Shown here: in pieces, positions 9,258 through 62,535 of the stretch
Numbering within the stretch: position 1 is the first letter of the stretch
Layout: each line of letters opens with the position of its first letter
Source: a virus
Taxonomy: Duplodnaviria > Heunggongvirae > Uroviricota > Caudoviricetes
IMG/VR virus record: IMGVR_UViG_3300008085_000025
Span: 46,839-110,838 of that record
Reading direction: 5' to 3' (one strand)
DNA: 64,000 nt
Made by a program: the position numbers and the translations under genes
Notes under the pieces: model-generated
Told to the model about the DNA's origin: nothing
Databases searched by the model: none
What the model saw: only the letters and a program-made list of their open reading frames with translations

Positions 9258-10358
9258 ATGAAACATTACAACTTTACAGTCTTTATTGGCAGATTCCAGC
9301 CGCCCCACAGAGGCCACCTCGAAACAATTCGCAAAGCTTTAGAAATCTCCGATAAGCTTATTCTTATCTTAGGAAGTTCGAACGCTTCGCAAAACATTAA
9401 AAACCCTTTCACGGACGCCCAGAGGGCACATATGATTCTTTCTGCTTTTCCTAACGATGCTGATCGCATCAGCATTCAGCATGTTCAAGACAGGTTTTAT
9501 CAAAACAAATATTGGATTACCGATGTCCAGAAAACCGTGTTCGATGCAATCTCTCGTAGTGGGTGGCATGACAAGCCTTCAGTTGCTTTGATGGGTCATA
9601 AAAAGGATGAAAGCTCGTGGTATCTTGATTCGTTCCCACAGTGGGATTTTATCGAAACCGACTCTATCACGATCAGCGAAGACGATGATGTGATCATGCA
9701 TTCAACAGATATTCGAGAACTTTATTACAAGGGAATGCTTGGGTACATTCGTCACCCACTTGGTTCCGAGACCACATATAAGTTTATGAAGGATTTCATG
9801 ACTACCCCGGAATATGAAAACTTGAAACGGGAATATGAGGACGGTCTGGACTATGAAAGGCTGTTTGCAGCATATCCAGAAAAGTGGGCCGTTAATTTTC
9901 TATGTGCAGATGCGGTTGTGATCCAGTCCGGTCATATTCTGCTTGTCAGACGGGCTGAGAGACCCGGTAAGGGGCTTTGGGCACTTCCGGGTGGCCACGT
10001 AAACTCTACCGAGACAACATTCGACGCGGCGATCAGAGAGCTTAAGGAAGAGACCTCTCTAAAGGTTCCAGAAAAGGTTCTTAGAGGGAGTATGGTCGAT
10101 TCAAAGTTCTTCGATCACCCTGATCGTTCTTTGCGTGGCAGGGTTCATACCAAGCGTGGTAGAACAGTTACAATGGCTTATTGCTTTTCATTGAACGACG
10201 GCCATAAACTGCCCAAGGTCGTTGGGGCCTCTGATGCTAGTGAAGTCAAGGGTGGTGCCGCATGGTGGTTCCCAATTAGTGAATTTAAGGTAATGAGGAA
10301 CCAAATGTTTGAAGACCATTATGACATTGCAAATTATTTCATTGATTCAATGGAGTGA
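9258..10358 (+). CDS. natV: Bifunctional nicotinamide-nucleotide adenylyltransferase / Nudix hydrolase (NatV-like)
   Basis: N-terminal GRFQPPHRGH (HxGH nucleotidyltransferase motif); C-terminal Nudix box GGHVNSTETTFDAAIRELKEETSL. Confidence 0.9.
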   Translation: MKHYNFTVFIGRFQPPHRGHLETIRKALEISDKLILILGSSNASQNIKNPFTDAQRAHMILSAFPNDADRISIQHVQDRFYQNKYWITDVQKTVFDAISRSGWHDKPSVALMGHKKDESSWYLDSFPQWDFIETDSITISEDDDVIMHSTDIRELYYKGMLGYIRHPLGSETTYKFMKDFMTTPEYENLKREYEDGLDYERLFAAYPEKWAVNFLCADAVVIQSGHILLVRRAERPGKGLWALPGGHVNSTETTFDAAIRELKEETSLKVPEKVLRGSMVDSKFFDHPDRSLRGRVHTKRGRTVTMAYCFSLNDGHKLPKVVGASDASEVKGGAAWWFPISEFKVMRNQMFEDHYDIANYFIDSME

Positions 10359-11160: not shown

Positions 11161-11219
11161 AGATTTTATGATGGGCATAGAATCTTTTGCTTTATAAAAA
11201 CATGATTAAGGAGTTTAAC

Positions 11220-12617
11220 ATGAACAAATTAAGCAACAATCCTATATTGAATTGCGACTCGTACAAGACCAGCCACTTTGGGTTCATGGCACCCGGAACC
11301 ACCCGACAGTATTCTTATATTGAAGCTCGAAAGGGTGGAGAGTATGACACTTCAGTATTCTTCGGTCTTCAACATTTAATCAAAACCTCATTAATGAAGC
11401 CCGTTACGATGGAAATGGTTAATCAGGCCGAAGCCGTTATCACAGCACACGGTCTTCCATTCAACCGGAAAGGTTGGGAATACATAGTCAACGAATGTGA
11501 CGGGTTTTTGCCTTTAAGTATTCGCGCAGTTCCAGAAGGAATGCACGTACCAGAAGGAAATGTGATGGTTGTTGTCGAGAACACCGATGAGAATTGTGCG
11601 TGGGTCACTTCCTATGTGGAAACCTCTTTGCTTCGTGGCGTGTGGTACGGAACTACGGTCGCAACGCGCTCATATCGTTTCCGGGAATTGATTTCCAGTT
11701 ACTTGGAAGAAACTGGTGACCCCGACCTCATCGACTTCAAGTTTGTTGATTTTGGGGCACGTGGGGCATCTTCTAAGCAGTCGAGTGAGATTGCTGGTGC
11801 AGCACACTTGGTCAATTTCATGGCAACTGACAATATTGTTGGGATTCTCGCCTGTATGGAGTACTATAATTCTCCGGTTGTAACAGGGTTTTCAATTCCG
11901 GCGACGGAGCACACGGTTACTATTGCAGAAGGTCCGGGCAACGAGAAGAAGTTTTTTGAGCGCGCCATTGATGTATACGGTGGCGAGGGTAAGATGGTTT
12001 CTGTAGTTAGCGACACTTATTCGTTCGAAAACGCTCTTAATATTTGGGCAGAGCTTCGGGAAAAGATAGAAGAAAAGGGTGGTACTGTGGTGATTCGTCC
12101 AGACAGTGGAAATCCCACAGAAATGGTTATGCTTGCGTTGAACAAGCTTTCCGATTCTTACGGCTACACTATAAATGACAAGGGTTTTAAAGTTTTGAAT
12201 CCAGCGGTCAGAATCATTCAAGGTGATGGTGTGAATCTCTCCGAAGTCGAAAATATTTTGAAGACCATGAAGGTCTCAGGCTTCAGTGCAGATAATATTA
12301 CATTTGGGTGTGGTGGATATTTGCTTCAAGATTTGACGAGAGATACGTTACGTTTTGCTATGAAGGGCTCGTATGTGGAAGTTGATGGAGAAATTCGAGA
12401 AGTATGTAAAACTACTGAGACTGACCCCACTAAGGCTTCTAAGGCGGGTCGGGTTATATTAGTTAAGCGATCCGGTGTCCGACTACCCATCACCATTAGA
12501 GAGGAAGAGAAACTTCCGACAGACATAGAACTACTGGAAGAGGTATTCCTGAATGGAAAATTGGTACGGGATATGACGTTTGAAGAGGTCCGCACCAACG
12601 CCCGAACAAATTGGTAA
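11220..12617 (+). CDS. nadV: Nicotinamide phosphoribosyltransferase (NadV/NAMPT)
   Basis: NCDSYKTSHF signature, full-length about 465 aa; start set at ATG after AAGGAG RBS (ORF track begins at 11187). Confidence 0.9.
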   Translation: MNKLSNNPILNCDSYKTSHFGFMAPGTTRQYSYIEARKGGEYDTSVFFGLQHLIKTSLMKPVTMEMVNQAEAVITAHGLPFNRKGWEYIVNECDGFLPLSIRAVPEGMHVPEGNVMVVVENTDENCAWVTSYVETSLLRGVWYGTTVATRSYRFRELISSYLEETGDPDLIDFKFVDFGARGASSKQSSEIAGAAHLVNFMATDNIVGILACMEYYNSPVVTGFSIPATEHTVTIAEGPGNEKKFFERAIDVYGGEGKMVSVVSDTYSFENALNIWAELREKIEEKGGTVVIRPDSGNPTEMVMLALNKLSDSYGYTINDKGFKVLNPAVRIIQGDGVNLSEVENILKTMKVSGFSADNITFGCGGYLLQDLTRDTLRFAMKGSYVEVDGEIREVCKTTETDPTKASKAGRVILVKRSGVRLPITIREEEKLPTDIELLEEVFLNGKLVRDMTFEEVRTNARTNW

Positions 12618-13794: not shown

Positions 13795-14417
13795 ATATGA
13801 ACACTGAAGCTTTGAACGTTGAACAGTTACCATTGATCCTACAATTGAATGCGGGTGGTGAGCCCGTGGGCTGGATCAACTATGAAAAGTCTGCATACTT
13901 TTACGCTAAGAACAAAGTATTGTGGAGTTTGGGACAGCACGAGGTTACTCTTCGTGGTGGTACTAATGCGGTTACGGGACAGCGTTCCAGACTGGTTATG
14001 GATACTATTGTAGCAGTTGATGCTAAAATGAGTCCTTCTAAGTGGAGATCAGGAACACCACCTTTGACCAACAAGACATTGTTCATTCGTGACCGTAATG
14101 TTTGTGGCTATTGTTCAGAGTTGTTTCCTAGATCGGATTTAACTCGTGACCATGTTGTGCCTAAGTCTCGGGGTGGAGAAGACAGTTGGACCAACTTGGT
14201 TACTGCTTGTAAGAAGTGTAACCATAAGAAAGCCGACAGAACACCCGGAGAAGCAAAAATGCCATTGGTATACGTTCCATATGTGCCAAATTACAACGAG
14301 CATCTTATTCTCCAGAACCGCCGAATCCTAGCGGATCAGATGGAATATTTGATCAAGGGTGTGTCGAAGAATAGTCGTATCCATGAAATGATCGAAAACG
14401 GTTACTTCTTACACTAG
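13791..14417 (+). CDS. HNH endonuclease
   Basis: CGYC...DHVVPKSRGGEDSWTNLVTACKKCNHKK (HNH with zinc-binding Cys pairs). Confidence 0.75.
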   Translation: MNMNTEALNVEQLPLILQLNAGGEPVGWINYEKSAYFYAKNKVLWSLGQHEVTLRGGTNAVTGQRSRLVMDTIVAVDAKMSPSKWRSGTPPLTNKTLFIRDRNVCGYCSELFPRSDLTRDHVVPKSRGGEDSWTNLVTACKKCNHKKADRTPGEAKMPLVYVPYVPNYNEHLILQNRRILADQMEYLIKGVSKNSRIHEMIENGYFLH

Positions 14418-16344: not shown

Positions 16345-17082
16345 TCAATCTTCAATGCATTCAATCCAAGCTCTAACAAAATCACTTCGAACTATGTCTT
16401 GTCTCTGGAAGTATATGGTGTCAAAGAAGTTGTTATTAGAAAGAACCTTGTCTAGACGTTCAATACATGATATATCCCTATTGGATTTGAACAAATCAGA
16501 TTGATTGGAGTCGCCGACCAGAATTATTTTACTATTTCTACCAACTCGTGTCATAACAGTATTGACTTCGTGGAAATTGAGGTTTTGGACTTCGTCAACA
16601 ACAATAACAGAGTTGTCCCACGTTTGTCCTCGCAAGAAACTTGTTGGCATGAATTCTACTTTACCACTCTCCTTGAATTTGTCGTATGACGTTGGCATGT
16701 CAAACAAGAACGAGAACAATTCTCTATATGGGGTTTCATATACAGAAATTTTTTCATCTATCGAACCCGGCAAATATCCAACTTCTCTGGTCGGTACAAC
16801 ACTTCTAATTATCTTGACGTGTTCAATAGGTTGGTCCCGGTCCAACAAATCGTTCAATGCTAGATATAACGCCACCAAGCTTTTTCCCGTCCCGGCAGAA
16901 CCGGATGCAAAGATAGAGTTTCCGGAAAAATAAGATTCCATCATCTGTTTTTGTGGTGTTGTTAGGGGTTTAATGGCCTTCAAGTCGTGGAACGAGAGTG
17001 ATTTGCAGTTGTTGTTATATTCTTGGCGAGCTAGGTTGTCGTGTTGAACTACATGTAGGCTCTTTTTCTTAGACTTTTTCAT
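16345..17082 (-). CDS. phoH: PhoH-like ATPase
   Basis: Walker A GSAGTGKS; VVDEVQN Walker B; typical phage PhoH length. Confidence 0.85.
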   Translation of the reverse strand: MKKSKKKSLHVVQHDNLARQEYNNNCKSLSFHDLKAIKPLTTPQKQMMESYFSGNSIFASGSAGTGKSLVALYLALNDLLDRDQPIEHVKIIRSVVPTREVGYLPGSIDEKISVYETPYRELFSFLFDMPTSYDKFKESGKVEFMPTSFLRGQTWDNSVIVVDEVQNLNFHEVNTVMTRVGRNSKIILVGDSNQSDLFKSNRDISCIERLDKVLSNNNFFDTIYFQRQDIVRSDFVRAWIECIED

Positions 17083-17194: not shown

Positions 17195-17452
17195 TTGCAT
17201 CGCTATTCGAGAATATTTATACATACCCCGACAGGTATCTTTGGAAACATGAACAAACCCCACGACTATTGCGTTTATGACGGTAAAGAATTTATAATCA
17301 CCGGAAGAGAAGCACGAAATGCTAAAGGCTCTATTATGATTGAACTCAAGCCAAAGATATGCGAAGTGTATAACATTGGGGATGAGTTCAATAGATGGGT
17401 TTCTCCACAAGACACGTACATGATAAGCACACCAAGGGACGAAGAGAACTAA
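17195..17452 (+). CDS. small hypothetical protein
   Basis: 85-aa ORF immediately upstream of frd; start uncertain. Confidence 0.35.
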   Translation: MHRYSRIFIHTPTGIFGNMNKPHDYCVYDGKEFIITGREARNAKGSIMIELKPKICEVYNIGDEFNRWVSPQDTYMISTPRDEEN

Positions 17453-17453
17453 T

Positions 17454-18020
17454 ATGAAACCAAGAATAGCGGCTATAGTAGCCGTAGATGAAGAAAACGG
17501 TATAGGTAAAGATGGAAGAATGGCTTGGCACATCCCAGAAGACTTTAAACACTTTAGAGAATACACAAAGAATTCTTTGTGCATAATGGGCAGTACCACA
17601 TTTAACGATATCTGTTTACATAAAAAAAGCAAGGATGGACCGTTTTTGTCCGGAAGGACTTGCATAGTTTTGACTCGAAGACCCGATGAACTCATAAATA
17701 ATTGCAATTTCACCGGAGTTCACTTCATGTCGGATGGGGTTTTATTAAAAGATATCATACGTCTTACTTCTACTTCTACTTACACCCCACTGCACCAATT
17801 CGACAAAGTTTGTGTTATTGGTGGTAAGAGTGTGTATGATCTTTTCTTCGATATTCTTGACGAGATTGTTGTTACGCGAGTAAAGGGATCATACGATTGT
17901 GATGTTCACATTAACATGACACCATATACAGAAAAGGCTTCTGTTGTAACAGGATGGGGGTTAGATGGCACCCCCCATATGGTGGAATTGTATATTTTAA
18001 ATCGAGATCAGGGAGAATAA
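17454..18020 (+). CDS. frd: Dihydrofolate reductase
   Basis: IAAIVAVDENGIGKDGRMAWHIPEDFKHFREYT matches the DHFR N-terminal signature. Confidence 0.85.
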   Translation: MKPRIAAIVAVDEENGIGKDGRMAWHIPEDFKHFREYTKNSLCIMGSTTFNDICLHKKSKDGPFLSGRTCIVLTRRPDELINNCNFTGVHFMSDGVLLKDIIRLTSTSTYTPLHQFDKVCVIGGKSVYDLFFDILDEIVVTRVKGSYDCDVHINMTPYTEKASVVTGWGLDGTPHMVELYILNRDQGE

Positions 18021-18023
18021 AAT

Positions 18024-18328
18024 TGAAAACTAAAAGCGTTTATAACATCCTAGAGGATTTTGCTAAAAAACTAGGCGACGAAGATTTAACTGTATCGTTT
18101 GCATTATGTAGGGGAGAGTGGTACGTGTCTGTGTCTTGTCACAGCTCGATGTATATGAAGTTTGATCATGATGGAGAACAACGATCAGCTATTATCCATC
18201 ATAGTGAATCAGAAACTAACATAAAAAAGATACTCGGAGAATTGGTTGATAAATACCTCGAACATATGAAAGATACGAGGAAATCAAATGATATTGAGAG
18301 AATTGAAGTATCCGAAGAGACCAGTTAG
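18024..18328 (+). CDS. hypothetical protein (possible TTG start coupled to the frd stop)
   Basis: ORF 17954..18328 overlaps the frd end; GGAGA RBS precedes TTG at 18024. Confidence 0.4.
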
Positions 18329-18825
18329 TTCTGATTCAGAATTAGGTGTATCTGTGGGGAAATACGTAGGGGTAAATTTCACCCCAGAAACCGTTGAACA
18401 AATCAAAAAAATAATCGACGGGGACAAAATACCGAACCCAACAAACCCAGAAGATTTTCATTCTACGATAGCCCATAGTGTAACAGACATTAAAGGTTAT
18501 CAGCCTGATGAAGAACTCGAAGAACCAAAAGAAGCAAAAAATCAAGGGATTTAAAATTTTTAATACGAAAGACGGTGGTCGCTGCTTGGTAGCGGCCCTC
18601 GATTCAGACTACTTGAGAGATAAACACCAGACCACATTAGATCATGGCGCTACTTACGATTTTCCAGAGTACATCCCTCATGTAACTTTGTCCTATAATG
18701 TGGGTGACGACTTGTCCGAAGAAAATCTAGATAAGTTGACGAACAAATATGGCGGAACTGTACTAAAAATTTCGAAAGAATATATGCAAGATCTTGATCC
18801 AAATTGGGTAGAAAAGCGCTCATAA
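18288..18825 (+). CDS. 2H phosphoesterase (LigT/Acb1-like) split by a +1 frame change at an A6 run
   Basis: First H-x-T motif (FHSTIAH) in frame of 18288..18554; second (PHVTLSY) in frame of 18508..18825; deleting one A in GCAAAAAATC (about 18533-18538) gives a continuous protein of about 175 aa. Confidence 0.55.
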
Positions 18826-18881
18826 TCGTTGACTCTAACGTAGATATGTTGTATAATATCGTATCTACTTGAGGGTTAACA

Positions 18882-20762
18882 ATGACTATCGATATCGAGA
18901 AAACGATTCAAGATTTACAAAAATTCGACGAGGCTTACTATAAGGGTTCACCCCTGATCCCCGATGACCAATACGACGCACTTCGTAGGAGAGCCGAGGA
19001 AATTTCTCCAGAACATGAGTATTTCAAAAAAGCCCCCCACGTTAAAGAAACATCGTTGGAGAAAGTACATCTCCCATACTCTATGGGAAGTTTAAATCAG
19101 GTCTATGAGGGTGAAGCGTTAAAGTGGGCTGAAAAGTATGATTGTATTCAAAATGATGTTGTAGTCACAGAAAAGCTCGATGGGGCCAGCATTCTTTTGG
19201 TGTACGAAAGCAACGGGAGGGGCAAGGCCGAACTGTCCAAAGCGTTCACGCGGGGTGATGGTGTTCTGGGCCATGACGTTACTCGTCATATTGTAGCTAT
19301 CGTCGATATTCCCAAAACCGTCGGTTGTGACTATCTGGCGGTTCGGGCGGAAATAATAATGCGCCGTTCGGTATTTGACGCCAAATATAAAAGAAAGTAC
19401 AAGAATCCTAGAAACTTAGTTGCAGGTTTTCTTAATAGAAACGAAACTAATCTGGAAATGGTGCAAGATGTTGATCTTGTCGCCTACGAGATTATCGATG
19501 TTTCCGGAGTTAGTAACGTATTTACGAAAGAAGAAACCGTAAACCATTTGAAGCAGATGGATTTCACTGTGGCTCGTCACGAGAAAATGAAAGGATGTGA
19601 CCTGACCGACGAAAAACTTGCAAACACGTTGGCCGAATTCAAGAGAACCGGCGTGTATGAACTAGACGGAGTAGTGGTAACAGTCAATGACTATTCTAAT
19701 TTCAAGGAAACCTCTGATTCAGATTCATTGAACCCGGAACACTCTGTGAAGTTTAAGGTACAAACACTGTTTGAAGAAGTAGAGGTAAAAGAAGTTATCT
19801 GGAAACTTTCTAAGTCTAACTTTTTTAAACCTAGAATCAAGTTTGAAGAAGTTGAGTTAGACGGGGCCACTATAACCTACGCCACGGGGCACAACGCAAG
19901 ATTTATTCGTGACAATGGGATTGGTAGTGGTGCCAAAATTAAAATCACTCGCGCCGGTAGTGTTATCCCGTATGTGATGGGGGTAACGAGACCCGTTCAC
20001 CCCGACATGCCACCCAAAGGCACGTGGAGTTGGGATGAAAACGGGGTTGAAGCTGTCTCTAAGGAAGAAATCTCTTCCCAGCGTACTTTGATGGAGACCG
20101 TTCACTTTTTTAAGACTCTCGGTGTTGATAACGTACAAGAAACTTCTATTGAAAAATTAATAGAACATCAAGGATGGAGTGAAAAAATCTTCGACGATTT
20201 GGTAGTATCAATTATAGAGTTATGGGATGAAGAGTGGAGACAAGCGTTGGGAGAAAATGGGAAAAAGGCGTTTCTGAGTTTACATACTATTCTCTCTAGT
20301 GTAAAACCTGAAGTGGTAATGGGATCACTCCCTTATTTTGGAAGAGGGTTCGGGGTTCGAAAAGCGAAGAAGGTTTTGGGACAAATGACCCTAGAAGAGT
20401 TCAAAAACGCTACATTCGAAGATATCGAGAAACTAGAAGGGTTTAATTCTACATGTGAAAGCATCTATGATGGATTAAGCCGCTTCAATATATTTTTGGA
20501 TAGAACCAAGGACTACATAACTTTCACAAAAAAGTCGGTGACCGAGCAAAGTATGGGTGGTCAAACTATAGTGATGACAGGATTTAGGGATAACGAATTG
20601 AAAGAAAAAATCGAGGAGCGCGGTGGAAAGGTCACGACTTCTGTTTCTAAGAATACAACTATGGTTCTTACCAAAAGCGTTAAGTCTTCTAGCTCTAAAG
20701 TGAAGAAAGCTAAAGAATTGGGTATTCCTGTGGTCGATGTTGCTGATTTTGATGTTATCTGA
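18882..20762 (+). CDS. ligA: NAD+-dependent DNA ligase (LigA-type)
   Basis: KLDGAS adenylation motif (KxDG), LigA N-terminal Ia-like region, C-terminal BRCT-like GQTIVMTGF... Confidence 0.9.
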   Translation: MTIDIEKTIQDLQKFDEAYYKGSPLIPDDQYDALRRRAEEISPEHEYFKKAPHVKETSLEKVHLPYSMGSLNQVYEGEALKWAEKYDCIQNDVVVTEKLDGASILLVYESNGRGKAELSKAFTRGDGVLGHDVTRHIVAIVDIPKTVGCDYLAVRAEIIMRRSVFDAKYKRKYKNPRNLVAGFLNRNETNLEMVQDVDLVAYEIIDVSGVSNVFTKEETVNHLKQMDFTVARHEKMKGCDLTDEKLANTLAEFKRTGVYELDGVVVTVNDYSNFKETSDSDSLNPEHSVKFKVQTLFEEVEVKEVIWKLSKSNFFKPRIKFEEVELDGATITYATGHNARFIRDNGIGSGAKIKITRAGSVIPYVMGVTRPVHPDMPPKGTWSWDENGVEAVSKEEISSQRTLMETVHFFKTLGVDNVQETSIEKLIEHQGWSEKIFDDLVVSIIELWDEEWRQALGENGKKAFLSLHTILSSVKPEVVMGSLPYFGRGFGVRKAKKVLGQMTLEEFKNATFEDIEKLEGFNSTCESIYDGLSRFNIFLDRTKDYITFTKKSVTEQSMGGQTIVMTGFRDNELKEKIEERGGKVTTSVSKNTTMVLTKSVKSSSSKVKKAKELGIPVVDVADFDVI

Positions 20763-20814: not shown

Positions 20815-21519
20815 ATGTCAAATAAAGCAATTGACGAAAGATTCGAGGATGGTTCTTCTTTTAGGATTGATCCACCAAAAATTAAGCATTACGTACAAAG
20901 CTTGCAATTAAATGTTCACCACTTTTATCTGTCTGGAGAGATAGAGGATGATATTAACAAGTATTCAGACCTACTCAATGTGTTAAAAACCGCTAATGAA
21001 GAGGATACTATAGTAATTTACATCAACAGTGAAGGCGGTTCTCTTAGAATGGCAATACAGATTGTGAACTCTATGGTCGCATCTAGAGCCAAAGTGATTA
21101 CTTCTTTAGACGGAGATGCCCATTCTGCAGCGACTTTGATTTTTTTATCTGGGGAAGAGTATATCATCAATCCGAATTGTTCTTTTATGATACACAACTA
21201 TTCTGGCGGTTTTGCAATCGGAAAGGGGCATGAAATTAGAACGAGAGTAGAGCATGTAAACGGCTATGTGGAAAAAATAATGAGAAAGTTTTATGAGAAA
21301 ATTCTTACAGAAGAAGAGATCGACCATGTAGTTGATGGTCGAGATATCTGGATGGATTCCGACCAGCTTATTGCTCGTTTAGAAGCTGGAGAGAAGAATT
21401 CTTTACTTGAGACAGAAGACATTACTCCCAAAACCCCCTTGGATGGTAAATTGGTATCCAGTGGAAGAAAAAAAACTACTAAGAAAAAGACTAAAATAAA
21501 ATTGTCCGAAGATACTTGA
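20815..21519 (+). CDS. ClpP-family (S14) serine peptidase
   Basis: IVIYINSEGGSLRMAIQIVNSM / GDAHSAATLIFLSG (Ser) / MIHNY (His) align with ClpP catalytic blocks. Confidence 0.8.
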   Translation: MSNKAIDERFEDGSSFRIDPPKIKHYVQSLQLNVHHFYLSGEIEDDINKYSDLLNVLKTANEEDTIVIYINSEGGSLRMAIQIVNSMVASRAKVITSLDGDAHSAATLIFLSGEEYIINPNCSFMIHNYSGGFAIGKGHEIRTRVEHVNGYVEKIMRKFYEKILTEEEIDHVVDGRDIWMDSDQLIARLEAGEKNSLLETEDITPKTPLDGKLVSSGRKKTTKKKTKIKLSEDT

Positions 21520-21528
21520 CGGGTTGGA

Positions 21529-21536
21529 TATAAATA
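21529..21536 (+). promoter_or_regulatory. T4-type late promoter motif TATAAATA upstream of ssrA
   Basis: Exact TATAAATA about 10 nt before the tmRNA acceptor piece. Confidence 0.45.
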
Positions 21537-21544
21537 GGTATAAT

Positions 21545-21935
21545 AATAAGCATTCGTTGAGACGAGACTGAAAGCGAACGACACGCGGGTTCGACTCCCG
21601 CCGTCTCCAAAAGCGTCTACAAGTGCCAACAGAGGAAGGATAGGGCATCCTCCCGGCGTAGCAAACAAAAAAGCCTTAGACGAGTTGGGTAATGCGTCAG
21701 AAACCCGGTAAATCCGGGAAATGGTGGACGCTTTTGGAGGGGGCGAAACTGGAAATCGACCGGGCGTTATTAGGAATCGAGGAGAATCGTCAACAAAGAC
21801 GCAAAAATGATAGTAAAATAAATGCAGCAAATGACGCTGACTTCGACAGCAACGCTAACGGCTTCGCCCTAGCAGCTTGATCGAATGCGGGTTAGAGCAA
21901 TATCCGTATAACCAAAGCTCAGAAGGGGACAAGCT
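21545..21935 (+). ncRNA. ssrA: tmRNA (ssrA), apparently circularly permuted two-piece form
   Basis: Upstream T-arm GCGGGTTCGACTCCCGC then an acceptor 3' strand CCGUCUCCA(AAA), where a CCA trinucleotide is present only if the acceptor strand is taken as GCCGUCU/discriminator C or CGCCGUC/U, and is followed by AAA under the CGUCUCC/A reading; about 110-nt intervening segment closed by perfect 11-nt inverted repeat CCAAAAGCGTC/GACGCTTTTGG; then GGGGGCGAAACUGGAAAUCGACCGGG (cf. E. coli GGGGCUGAUUCUGGAUUCGACGGG); tag ORF GCA AAT GAC...GCA GCT TGA = ANDADFDSNANGFALAA; terminator soon after. Confidence 0.65.
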
Positions 21936-21957
21936 AACTTGTCCCCTTCTCTATTTT
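21925..21957 (+). terminator. rho-independent terminator of ssrA
   Basis: GGGGACAAG-ctaa-CTTGTCCCC then TTCTCTATTTT. Confidence 0.75.
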
Positions 21958-22009
21958 AATTGTTGCCAGTAGTATTGCAAATACCGTCTCATATCAATAT
22001 AATGATCAA

Positions 22010-33939: not shown

Positions 33940-34520
33940 CGGCCCAAAAAAGATTTTAGTTCTGTAATAGATTGCTGTGCTGTAACGTGAACAATACCTA
34001 TTCCGCCAGCATCTCTCCATGGGCCTATGGAATGCATCCTGTCATCAATTAAAATACTGTTGTTTGTGGCGTAGTTGGCCTTGTCTGAAGATTTCTTTAC
34101 CACTTCCACTCTAATTTGCGGACCAAACACTTTTTTAACCCACTCTTTCTTTTGTTCCGCCCCGTCTTTTGGAGTATACCCGGAAGCGGTCAATATATAA
34201 TAATTTTTAAAGTTTGAATGGACGAATCTCATCAACTCAAAAGCATCATCCATAACGGGCAAATTGAGAAAAAATGGCTTAACTTCTTTATCATATCTAC
34301 TCAAGGTAGACCAAAATTTTTTAGAAGGTGTAGTATCTTTGTCTAAACCCAACATTTCTCTGGCCCCCGCAGAGAAATCGGCCAAAACCCCGTCCATATC
34401 TACTGCTATGGTGTACTTATCAGTAGCGTTTACTGATTCTTGTAAAAATATTTCTTTTAAAATCATTTCAATTTTCCTAAAAGTTGTTCTTTGTTCAGTT
34501 TGAATCCACTGTCCACCCAT
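33936..34520 (-). CDS. HAD-family 5'(3')-deoxyribonucleotidase-like phosphatase
   Basis: AVDMDGVLADF HAD motif I. Confidence 0.7.
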   Translation of the reverse strand: MGGQWIQTEQRTTFRKIEMILKEIFLQESVNATDKYTIAVDMDGVLADFSAGAREMLGLDKDTTPSKKFWSTLSRYDKEVKPFFLNLPVMDDAFELMRFVHSNFKNYYILTASGYTPKDGAEQKKEWVKKVFGPQIRVEVVKKSSDKANYATNNSILIDDRMHSIGPWRDAGGIGIVHVTAQQSITELKSFLGR

Positions 34521-35650
34521 TGTTTTTTGAGTGAATTGATCATTTTACCTAATTCTGGTCCGGGTGTAAAACCCCGTTTCAATAAATCTCCACCAGAAAC
34601 GGGGAATGGTGGAGCATTTTCTGCTGCTTTTGCCGCTGATACAGCAGAACTGTCACCAACTGCCAACCCATATTGACGAACAGTTTCGGGTTTAATTCCA
34701 TTGAAAAAGATTTCATCAAGAAAAGAAACACCTTTTACGTTTTCCCGCGCCACTATGTAGTTTATCAAATTGGCTTCTGGTCTAGACATTTTCATTCTCG
34801 ACACGAAATTCATTGTCTCCGACGGTGTTGCGTCCAACATTGTGGCTATGACCGCCTCTGGGCGAATCTCAGGCAGTTTTGCAGCTTCGGCTCCGTGCCG
34901 TATTGCTGAACTGCTTGTTGGCATAGAAATGGCCCCTAGGACGCCACATTTTTTCATTTCTTTGAATGCTTGTTTCATATTTGGTTGTATTACCATTTTA
35001 CTTAACTCTGACCAAATTCTTTCCGCCGATATTTTACGTAATCCTCCAACATTTCTTGAAATAGATTGTAAAGTTTGTTCGTCTGACGCTCGTCCTTCTT
35101 GTTTGGCCAAGAATCTGAAATAACGAAGAATCCGGAGATAATCTTCTTGAATTCTTTCATCTGGGTCGCCGACAAAGCGGGTTTGCTTGTTCTTCAAGTC
35201 TTCATGGCCACCAAAGTAATCATGAAGTTTTCCGTCCATATCCACCGACATAGCGTTATAGGTCAAATCCCTTCTTCTGGCGTCTTCCTTAAAATCGCGA
35301 GTCCATTCCACTTCAGCATGTCTACCGTCAGTATCTTTGTCAATTCTTAAAGTGGTTATTTCATAAGGTTCATCATTTATAACAAAAGTTAATGTTCCAT
35401 GTTCTGATCCGGTATCAACAACTCTAAGGTTGTTTACACGCCCAATCTTTTCCATCTCTTCCGGGGTAGCGGTTGTTGCTAGGTCGATGTCTTTGGGGGT
35501 TTTTCCGAGTAAAGCATCACGCACAGCACCACCTACGATTCGTATTTCGTATCCATTATTTTTGAATATACGACCTAATTTTTTAACATCCGGGCCGATG
35601 ATGGATGAAAGGTCTGGTTCTTTCGCCTCGAATAGCTTAATTATCTTCAT
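34463..35650 (-). CDS. cca: tRNA nucleotidyltransferase (class II CCA-adding enzyme)
   Basis: IVGGAVRDALLGKTPKDIDL head motif and EDARRRDLTYNAM (cf. E. coli LEDDLKRRDLTINAL). Confidence 0.85.
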   Translation of the reverse strand: MKIIKLFEAKEPDLSSIIGPDVKKLGRIFKNNGYEIRIVGGAVRDALLGKTPKDIDLATTATPEEMEKIGRVNNLRVVDTGSEHGTLTFVINDEPYEITTLRIDKDTDGRHAEVEWTRDFKEDARRRDLTYNAMSVDMDGKLHDYFGGHEDLKNKQTRFVGDPDERIQEDYLRILRYFRFLAKQEGRASDEQTLQSISRNVGGLRKISAERIWSELSKMVIQPNMKQAFKEMKKCGVLGAISMPTSSSAIRHGAEAAKLPEIRPEAVIATMLDATPSETMNFVSRMKMSRPEANLINYIVARENVKGVSFLDEIFFNGIKPETVRQYGLAVGDSSAVSAAKAAENAPPFPVSGGDLLKRGFTPGPELGKMINSLKKQWVDSGFKLNKEQLLGKLK

Positions 35651-56232: not shown

Positions 56233-56317
56233 GCCGAGGTCGCATAGTCTGGTCGATTGCACTGGCTTTGTAACCCAGTATTCCACACCGTAGGTTCAAA
56301 TCCTACCCTCGGCACCA
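56233..56317 (+). tRNA. tRNA, anticodon probably UGU (Thr), atypical 11-nt unpaired variable region
   Basis: Acceptor GCCGAGG/CCTCGGC, T-arm GTAGG-TTCAAAT-CCTAC, A-CCA encoded; anticodon arm CTGGC-TTTGTAA-CCCAG has one C-C mismatch; 85 nt. Confidence 0.55.
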
Positions 56318-56324
56318 AAACAAT

Positions 56325-56398
56325 GCCTCGTTAGTTCAATGGAAGAACCACGCTCTTACACAGCGATGACGGCAGTTCGATTCTGTCACGAGGTACCA
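56325..56398 (+). tRNA. tRNA-Val (UAC), tentative
   Basis: Acceptor GCCTCGT/ACGAGGT (G1-U72), D-arm GTTC/GAAC, anticodon loop CTTACAC, T-arm GGCAG-TTCGATT-CTGTC, ACCA encoded; 74 nt. Confidence 0.6.
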
Positions 56399-59764: not shown

Positions 59765-59840
59765 GCCCTTTTGGTGTAACTGGATAGCACAAGGGATTTC
59801 TACTCCCTTAGTATGGGTTCGAGTCCTGTAGAGGGTGCCA
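59765..59840 (+). tRNA. tRNA-Arg (UCU)
   Basis: Acceptor GCCCTTT/AGAGGGT, D-arm GTGT/GCAC, anticodon arm AGGGA-TTTCTAC-TCCCT, T-arm ATGGG-TTCGAGT-CCTGT, discriminator G, CCA encoded; 76 nt. Confidence 0.8.
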
Positions 59841-62458: not shown

Positions 62459-62535
62459 GGGACCGTAGCTCAATCGGTTAGAGCGTCCGACTCATAATCG
62501 GCAGGTTGGAGGTTCGAGTCCTCCCGGTCCCACCA
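62459..62535 (+). tRNA. tRNA with CAU anticodon (Met elongator-like or Ile2/lysidine)
   Basis: GGGACCG/CGGTCCC acceptor, GCTC-AATCGGTTA-GAGC D-arm, CTCATAA anticodon loop, GGAGG-TTCGAGT-CCTCC T-arm, ACCA; close to E. coli tRNA-Met(elong). Confidence 0.8.

Follow-up and report, generated by a model that had tools for sequence, protein, structure and literature searches.

The locus described here raises a simple question: does a phage gene whose two halves lie in different reading frames, meeting at a run of six A's, still code for a working enzyme, and if it does not, what has happened to it? The window, by which we mean the whole stretch of 64,000 nucleotides of viral DNA that was analysed, comes from a large myovirus without a close cultured relative. 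Megablast found nothing similar to positions 17,400–19,400 among 50,697 phage records. The features of the locus are the following:

18,277–18,280, + strand: Shine-Dalgarno-like GAGG, read from the sequence, 7 nt 5' of the acb1 start codon
18,288–18,554, + strand: ORF1, the N-terminal part of acb1, 88 aa, contains FHSTIAH
18,459–18,467, + strand: first catalytic HxT (H58-S59-T60), frame 0, aligned to HTT of the Acb1 of Erwinia phage FBB1
18,508–18,825, + strand: ORF2 as found mechanically, 105 aa, +1 frame, contains PHVTLSY
18,536–18,541, + strand: A6 homopolymer, the frameshift site, which holds the extra nucleotide; one-base gap in the relatives
18,541–18,825, + strand: C-terminal part of acb1, Ile85 to Ser178 plus stop, +1 frame, inside ORF2
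18,679–18,687, + strand: second catalytic HxT (H131-V132-T133), +1 frame, aligned to HIT of FBB1 Acb1
18,790–18,816, + strand: C-terminal segment DLDPNWVEK, residues 168–176, aligned to the end of FBB1 Acb1 (putative lid region)

The original prediction placed the two HxT motifs in different frames, FHSTIAH in frame 0 and PHVTLSY in the +1 frame, with an A6 run inside a 47-nt overlap. Translation of the ORFs agrees with both points: the overlap is found at 18,508–18,554 and the A6 run lies in the segment GCAAAAAATC, which begins at 18,534. The codon of H58 is at 18,459–18,461 and that of the histidine in PHVTLSY at 18,679–18,681. No uninterrupted ORF contains both motifs. ORF1 has 84 authentic codons (Met1–Lys84), followed after the +1 frameshift at A6 by four codons out of frame (NQGI) and by a TAA stop at 18,552–18,554. 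When one A is removed the reading becomes continuous, as had been predicted. The sizes need a small correction: the protein has 178 aa rather than about 175, and H58 and H131 are 73 positions apart rather than about 74. We will call this translation the repaired protein. The GAGG in front of the gene is similar to the GAGG/GGAG sites found ahead of the neighbouring genes, which are at 6–9 nt. Taken separately, both ORFs already have an Acb1 Pfam match on record, a weak precomputed one in the case of ORF1.

Acb1 is a phage anti-CBASS 2H phosphodiesterase, which hydrolyses the second messengers of CBASS through an HxT/HxT site (PMC9117128). Its catalytic tetrad consists of H44, T46, H113 and T115, and the single mutant H44A is listed there as lacking catalytic activity (Hobbs et al. 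2022, PMC9117128). A C-terminal lid formed by residues 145–152 closes over the ligand (PMC9117128). The repaired protein matches the Pfam family of Acb1 (PF23474) with E 2.2e-33 and 115.5 bits, the cut-off being 27. The match covers model positions 2–143/144 in one stretch which goes straight across the junction, so that the pair of ORFs is not a product of chance. Further matches are found with PHROG 755 (E 8e-39) and, by phmmer, with the structure of FBB1 Acb1 (PDB 7T26, E 1.5e-20, residues 24–176). In an alignment of 16 sequences H58, T60, H131, V132 and T133 are invariant; here they are encoded in two frames. An AlphaFold2 model of the repaired protein, built on the same alignment, has pLDDT 82.8 and pTM 0.76 and predicts a compact 2H phosphoesterase fold. 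A Foldseek comparison of this model with the PDB has 7T27 and 7T26 as best matches (E 1e-13, TM-score normalised to the target 0.83–0.87), followed by other viral cyclic-nucleotide phosphodiesterases and then by plant CPDase and E. coli LigT with E about 1e-4.

The original prediction called this gene a LigT/Acb1-like 2H phosphoesterase and proposed that the translation with one nucleotide deleted be compared with both families. The comparison gives a strong match with Acb1 and a far weaker one with LigT, and only the Acb1 part of the name can be kept. LigT / 2'-5' RNA ligase (PF13563) was rejected as a family: its score of 24.0 bits is below the cut-off of 27 and is limited to residues 79–150, besides the weak Foldseek value. 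Judged by sequence and by the predicted fold, this is a 2H phosphoesterase gene of the Acb1 subfamily and not of LigT proper. Enzymes of the LigT type (PF13563; E. coli LigT, PDB 5LDI) share with it the fold of the superfamily and the duplicated HxT/S, but the family is different. The 'RNA ligase' labels found in phage records are an inherited annotation; the best protein matches among phage records are less than 40% identical.

With the known Acb1 proteins (phage T4 gp57B; FBB1, 7T26/7T27) the repaired protein shares the full-length Pfam coverage, the tetrad and the predicted 2H fold. Its C-terminal segment DLDPNWVEK is aligned with the end of FBB1 Acb1, where the phmmer alignment reaches chain residue 143/144, and may correspond to the lid; residues 174–178 are modelled with pLDDT below 50. 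The numbering of the chain appears to be shifted by 8 residues from that of the paper, as deduced from H36 of the chain, which is H44 in the paper. As in T4, the gene sits in a large myovirus with rIIA and rIIB, both of which are encoded in the window. The differences are also clear. The gene is broken by a +1 frameshift after codon 84, and the protein is only about 30–41% identical to the characterised or T4-type members. It has an N-terminal extension of about 20 aa, specific to its clade and modelled with low confidence, as well as about 9 inserted residues (DLSEENLDK). Its surroundings are DHFR, orf101, acb1 and NAD ligase, in place of the 57A-57B context of the T4 type.

Relatives with an intact gene do exist. 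A homology search among about 5.8 billion clustered proteins gave five intact homologues of 178–179 aa, with 64–72% identity and 100% coverage. All five homologues, with identities of at least 64%, are encoded in a single frame as a single chain. The start of ORF1 and its N-terminal 20 aa are kept in the intact relatives (P0001–P0005). Contigs were fetched for three of the five, and the DNA alignment covers these three. They are syntenic with the window: PhoH on the opposite strand, DHFR, a 101-aa ORF, acb1, the NAD-dependent ligase and ClpP. The exceptions are found in the third gene of this series, which has 92 aa in one contig (L013) and is missing from the P0005 group, in which DHFR and acb1 are separated by a block of opposite-strand genes. 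The genes next to acb1 have the same lengths in the window and in the relatives.

The 101-aa ORF (18,023–18,328, + strand) has no family match and overlaps the start of acb1 by 41 nt. The same overlap is found in L010 and L011; in L013 and L014 the ORF has 92 aa and the overlap is 20 nt. The overlap codes for the N-terminal extension of about 20 aa in this clade of Acb1, for which the model has pLDDT below 50.

In the three syntenic relatives acb1 is intact, with 178–179 aa and one nucleotide fewer at the A-run. They read GC-TCGCAT, GC-AACTAT and GC-ATCTAT where the window has GCAAAAAATC, and none of the three has a homopolymer. Frame 0 of the window (...EEPKEA) follows the relatives up to the conserved Ala83, and the +1 frame (IKGFKIF...) follows them from the conserved Ile85 onwards. 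The extra base is confined to the four A's at 18,537–18,540, because the single one-base gap falls between the conserved codons GCA (Ala83) and ATC (Ile85). From this alignment the break is read as a +1 insertion in the A-run, with an ancestral state of one codon between GCA and ATC. In this lineage the codon was presumably AAA (Lys), which would have given a run of five A's that later gained one more.

The rest of the gene has been very well preserved. The repaired protein keeps the 17 invariant columns of the family alignment without exception. Its identity to the three relatives is 72, 72 and 64%, and the neighbouring genes have similar values: 76, 72 and 72% for the ligase, 71, 70 and 60% for DHFR, 76, 69 and 69% for ClpP. 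In both halves of the gene pN is 0.17–0.24 and pS 0.75–0.95, equal to the values between intact relatives; with such pS values synonymous sites are saturated, so that dN/dS is unusable and the comparisons of pN alone can be used. The values indicate that nearly all the divergence has accumulated under purifying selection, with no decay after the frameshift. With no other damage in the gene, we take the lesion to be recent. The intactness of the gene apart from the frameshift fits either a recent lesion or a gene still in use, since continued function also predicts it. A fresh pseudogene was one of three options in the original prediction, together with a homopolymer error and slippage. It is the one which agrees with all the observations: the protein has lost none of the family-invariant residues and has not diverged in excess.

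The same allele is found well beyond the window. Eight loci (L001–L005, L015–L017) in seven named assemblies have exactly the sequence of the window, A6 included, with 100% identity over up to 10.3 kb. The assemblies are ERZ17986945 and ERZ22298166 from ENA and 3300008003, 3300008086, 3300007988, 3300025139 and 3300025158 from JGI. All of them come from a single near-clonal population (0 differences); the base call is thereby confirmed, but they do not count as independent evolutionary observations. The populations of the relatives are equally clonal (99.97–100%), and there is no signal of a sweep. As all copies of the window lineage are 100% identical, the lineage contains no internal diversity by which selection on the two halves could be gauged. 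A search by tblastn within the window found no second intact copy of acb1. With a +1 frameshift followed by a stop, and the same allele in all public assemblies found, we consider this locus as acb1 by descent and not demonstrably a producer of Acb1, the enzyme which would cleave 3'3'-cGAMP, cA3 and related signals and so protect the phage from CBASS.

We think that the locus is most probably a genuine and recent loss-of-function frameshift of acb1, fixed in the population. The lesion would be an insertion which changed A5 into A6 in the acb1 gene of this phage lineage, a classic result of replication slippage. Translation from the conserved start would give 84 correct codons, change frame inside the central beta-hairpin and stop four codons later. 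In the AlphaFold2 model the junction (K84|I85) falls within a confidently modelled strand element, residues 76–92, and not at a domain boundary. The product would be a protein of 88 aa with the first HxT alone. The enzyme should then be off, because the frame that is read lacks the second HxT and the putative C-terminal lid. The lesion would have become fixed in the near-clonal phage population that was sampled; in principle a –1 slip within this tract could restore the frame. Phage T4 has frameshift hot spots of this kind in the A-runs of rII and lysozyme, which are associated with the slippage model of Streisinger. The likeness is a +1 change in 5–6 A's in a large myovirus, reversible in principle. 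It is an analogy for the origin of the lesion only.

The loss might even be advantageous, although this is speculative and based on analogy: it could be a way past guard systems of the Panoptes kind, which respond to the depletion of cyclic nucleotides by Acb1. In Panoptes of types I and II decoy cyclic nucleotides hold an effector silent, and the system fires once they are depleted by phage Acb1 or Acb2 (PMC12657230, PMC13577387). The T4-like phage Bas43 has a natural nonsense mutation in acb1 and escapes Panoptes; laboratory escapers of Bas35 have single-nucleotide mutations in the same gene (PMC12657230, PMC13577387). Our case is similar to these null alleles: a single-nucleotide lesion in a well preserved acb1 whose close relatives are intact. 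It differs from the nonsense mutation of Bas43 in being a homopolymer frameshift and in belonging to an uncultured environmental phage, and any connection with Panoptes would be by analogy. If our reading is right, an environmental case is added to the few documented natural acb1-null phages, with the null allele fixed across many metagenome assemblies. It is consistent with the published idea that broad degraders of cyclic nucleotides are a liability where hosts have decoy or guard systems. As to annotation, the ORFs of 88 and 105 aa (or 79 aa) should be joined into one entry, marked as a frameshifted acb1, rather than kept as two hypothetical proteins. No new mechanism would be opened unless recoding or phase switching is demonstrated.

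Recoding has a small chance of being the correct explanation. The A6 allele would then still yield full-length Acb1, at a deliberately low dose, either by a +1 ribosomal shift on A-AAA-AAU, with tRNA-Lys pairing again from AAA to AAA, or by an RNA polymerase which drops one A. Full length can be reached from A6 by a +1 shift, by a –2 shift or from a transcript with one A less; a productive –1 shift on A-AAA-AAT was rejected, as that frame stops after about 19 codons. The idea has some merit. The Lys codon in the P site can pair perfectly again after the +1 shift, the gene has no secondary damage, and low levels of Acb1 already give phenotypes (PMC12657230). Other features of the site argue against it. 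The A tract is absent in the three relatives whose DNA was examined and so is not conserved as a site of recoding. AAT, the codon in the A site, is a frequent one (27 per 1000), and intact long ORFs of the window contain the in-frame pair AAA-AAT five times. Just upstream of A6 there is no Shine-Dalgarno-like element. The RNA fold downstream is not significant (z –1.03): 25 of the 200 shuffled sequences fold as well. No Rfam family matches the region.

Genes rescued from two frames are known in several systems: prfB, the capsid and tail genes of Listeria phage PSA, dnaX, IS elements and the poly-A rescue of endosymbionts. The known +1 sites, as in prfB and phage PSA, use a stop or a rare codon in the A site. 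Efficient transcriptional slippage in bacteria requires runs of about nine or more A or T, so that six A's are short, although a low background of slippage or leaky rescue may occur. Our locus shares with programmed +1 and slippage systems two overlapping frames which meet at an A-run of slippery appearance. It differs from them in the length of the run, only 6 nt, in the unconserved site, in an A-site codon which is neither a stop nor rare, and in the lack of a stimulatory Shine-Dalgarno sequence or RNA structure; neither a conserved slippery motif nor a stimulatory element was found at A6. Programmed frameshifting is thus unsupported. The slippage option of the original prediction has no supporting feature either, given the unconserved tract, the common AAT codon and the weak fold.

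We give still less credit to the possibility that A6 is a leaky or reversible switch of an anti-defence gene, which would let through a trickle of Acb1 or exist as an ON/OFF polymorphism. If this were true, A6 would serve the phage as a contingency locus of counter-defence, operating through rare +1 shifts or slippage, or through reversion from A6 to A5 in a subpopulation. Such a switch would steer the phage between CBASS, which demands Acb1, and guards of the Panoptes type, which punish it.

A split enzyme is very unlikely. In this case ORF1 and ORF2 would be translated separately and would assemble without a covalent link into an active, pseudo-symmetric 2H fold. Internal duplication is a property of this fold, and each fragment has one HxT motif. 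An in-frame ATG at 18,508 makes a separate C-terminal fragment conceivable; gene callers also choose a TTG at 18,586, preceded by GGTGG, which gives 79 aa. Nevertheless the cut falls inside the predicted strand element already mentioned and not between domains, and the TTG start would delete two further strands. The ATG arises incidentally from conserved GAT-G(A/G)A codons, which the intact relatives have too, and its ribosome-binding site is poor (AAAGG, with a spacer of 11 nt). As we have seen, the five close homologues are all single-chain proteins, and we know of no precedent for a 2H enzyme made of two chains.

The least probable alternative is an artefact of sequencing or assembly, with A5 in the true genome and an intact gene: homopolymers are the classic place for indel miscalls, but this option of the original prediction is effectively excluded, because the identical A6 recurs in many more contigs besides the seven named assemblies of ENA and JGI, with its products also in Logan and hence from different assemblers, and no A5 allele is recorded. 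The exact 88-aa protein of ORF1 occurs in 90 blocks of the collections and the exact 105-aa protein of ORF2 in 28, from JGI, ENA and Logan. The C-terminus ...KNQGI of ORF1 occurs solely in the frameshifted allele. Among about 15 billion proteins there are zero exact matches for the repaired protein of 178 aa (A5) and for the 179-aa protein which A8 (+2) would give. Some contigs with the allele exceed 200 kb, and the longest span 152–257 kb. In the same window 37 other homopolymers of at least 6 bases lie harmlessly inside 19.6 kb of uninterrupted long ORFs, and the equal lengths of the neighbouring genes in the relatives also speak against an artefact.

The allele question (A5, A6 or A7) was settled by exact protein look-up instead of a scan of flanking DNA. 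The flank pattern CCAAAAGAAGC N{3,9} TCAAGGGATTTAAAA gave 0 matches in the viral and metagenome contig collections, although it does match the window and L001–L005; these collections evidently do not hold the source contigs. Scans of whole DNA collections and the homology search missed the contigs of the window and its ORF fragments, which the exact look-ups did find. Zero matches in the DNA scans do not mean absence for this reason. A scan of overlapping open frames with homopolymers for other frameshifted genes gave 89 pairs, which were mostly taken as ordinary overlaps of a compact genome.

Several other features of the region may be mentioned. A sigma-70-like site (TTGACT-17-TATAAT, 11/12 positions) is found at 18,829–18,857 on the + strand, 4 nt after the acb1 stop and upstream of the ligase gene. 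Another one (TTGACG-17-TATAAT, 11/12 consensus positions) is at 21,516–21,544, ahead of a tmRNA; taken together, promoter-like sites are no more numerous in the region than expected from shuffled sequence. The tmRNA is permuted, in two pieces, at 21,552–21,880 on the + strand, just downstream of ClpP (20,815–21,519). It matches Rfam RF04321 with 60.9 bits, the gathering score being 47; ARAGORN places it at 21,519–21,971 with the tag peptide AANDADFDSNANGFALAA. The pairing of ClpP and tmRNA is kept in two relatives, L006 (9,258–9,516, 86.6 bits) and L010 (9,256–9,567, 96.6 bits). A phage with a tagging RNA and a subunit of the protease that degrades tagged proteins may merit a separate look.

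The window also has a pair of NAD salvage genes on the + strand: a fusion of an NMNAT-like cytidylyltransferase with Nudix (9,258–10,358) and NAMPT (11,187–12,617). The pair resembles the NAD-reconstitution counter-defence of phages, and this phage may keep one counter-defence while its acb1 is broken. The PhoH gene has 245 aa in the window (16,345–17,082, – strand) and 592 aa in L010 (3,016–4,794, – strand), where it has matches to Hom_end and LAGLIDADG; from these matches the enlargement looks like an intein or the insertion of a homing endonuclease. An HNH endonuclease ORF of 206 aa (13,797–14,417, + strand), kept in L010 and L013, is flanked by an AAA_33 kinase-like gene and by a DUF1508 gene. 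Four tRNA genes are found, Thr-TGT, Val-TAC, Arg-TCT and Met-CAT, with positions listed as 56,233–56,398, 59,765–59,840 and 62,459–62,535 on the + strand; a tRNA nucleotidyltransferase (CCA-adding enzyme) is encoded at 34,463–35,650 on the – strand.
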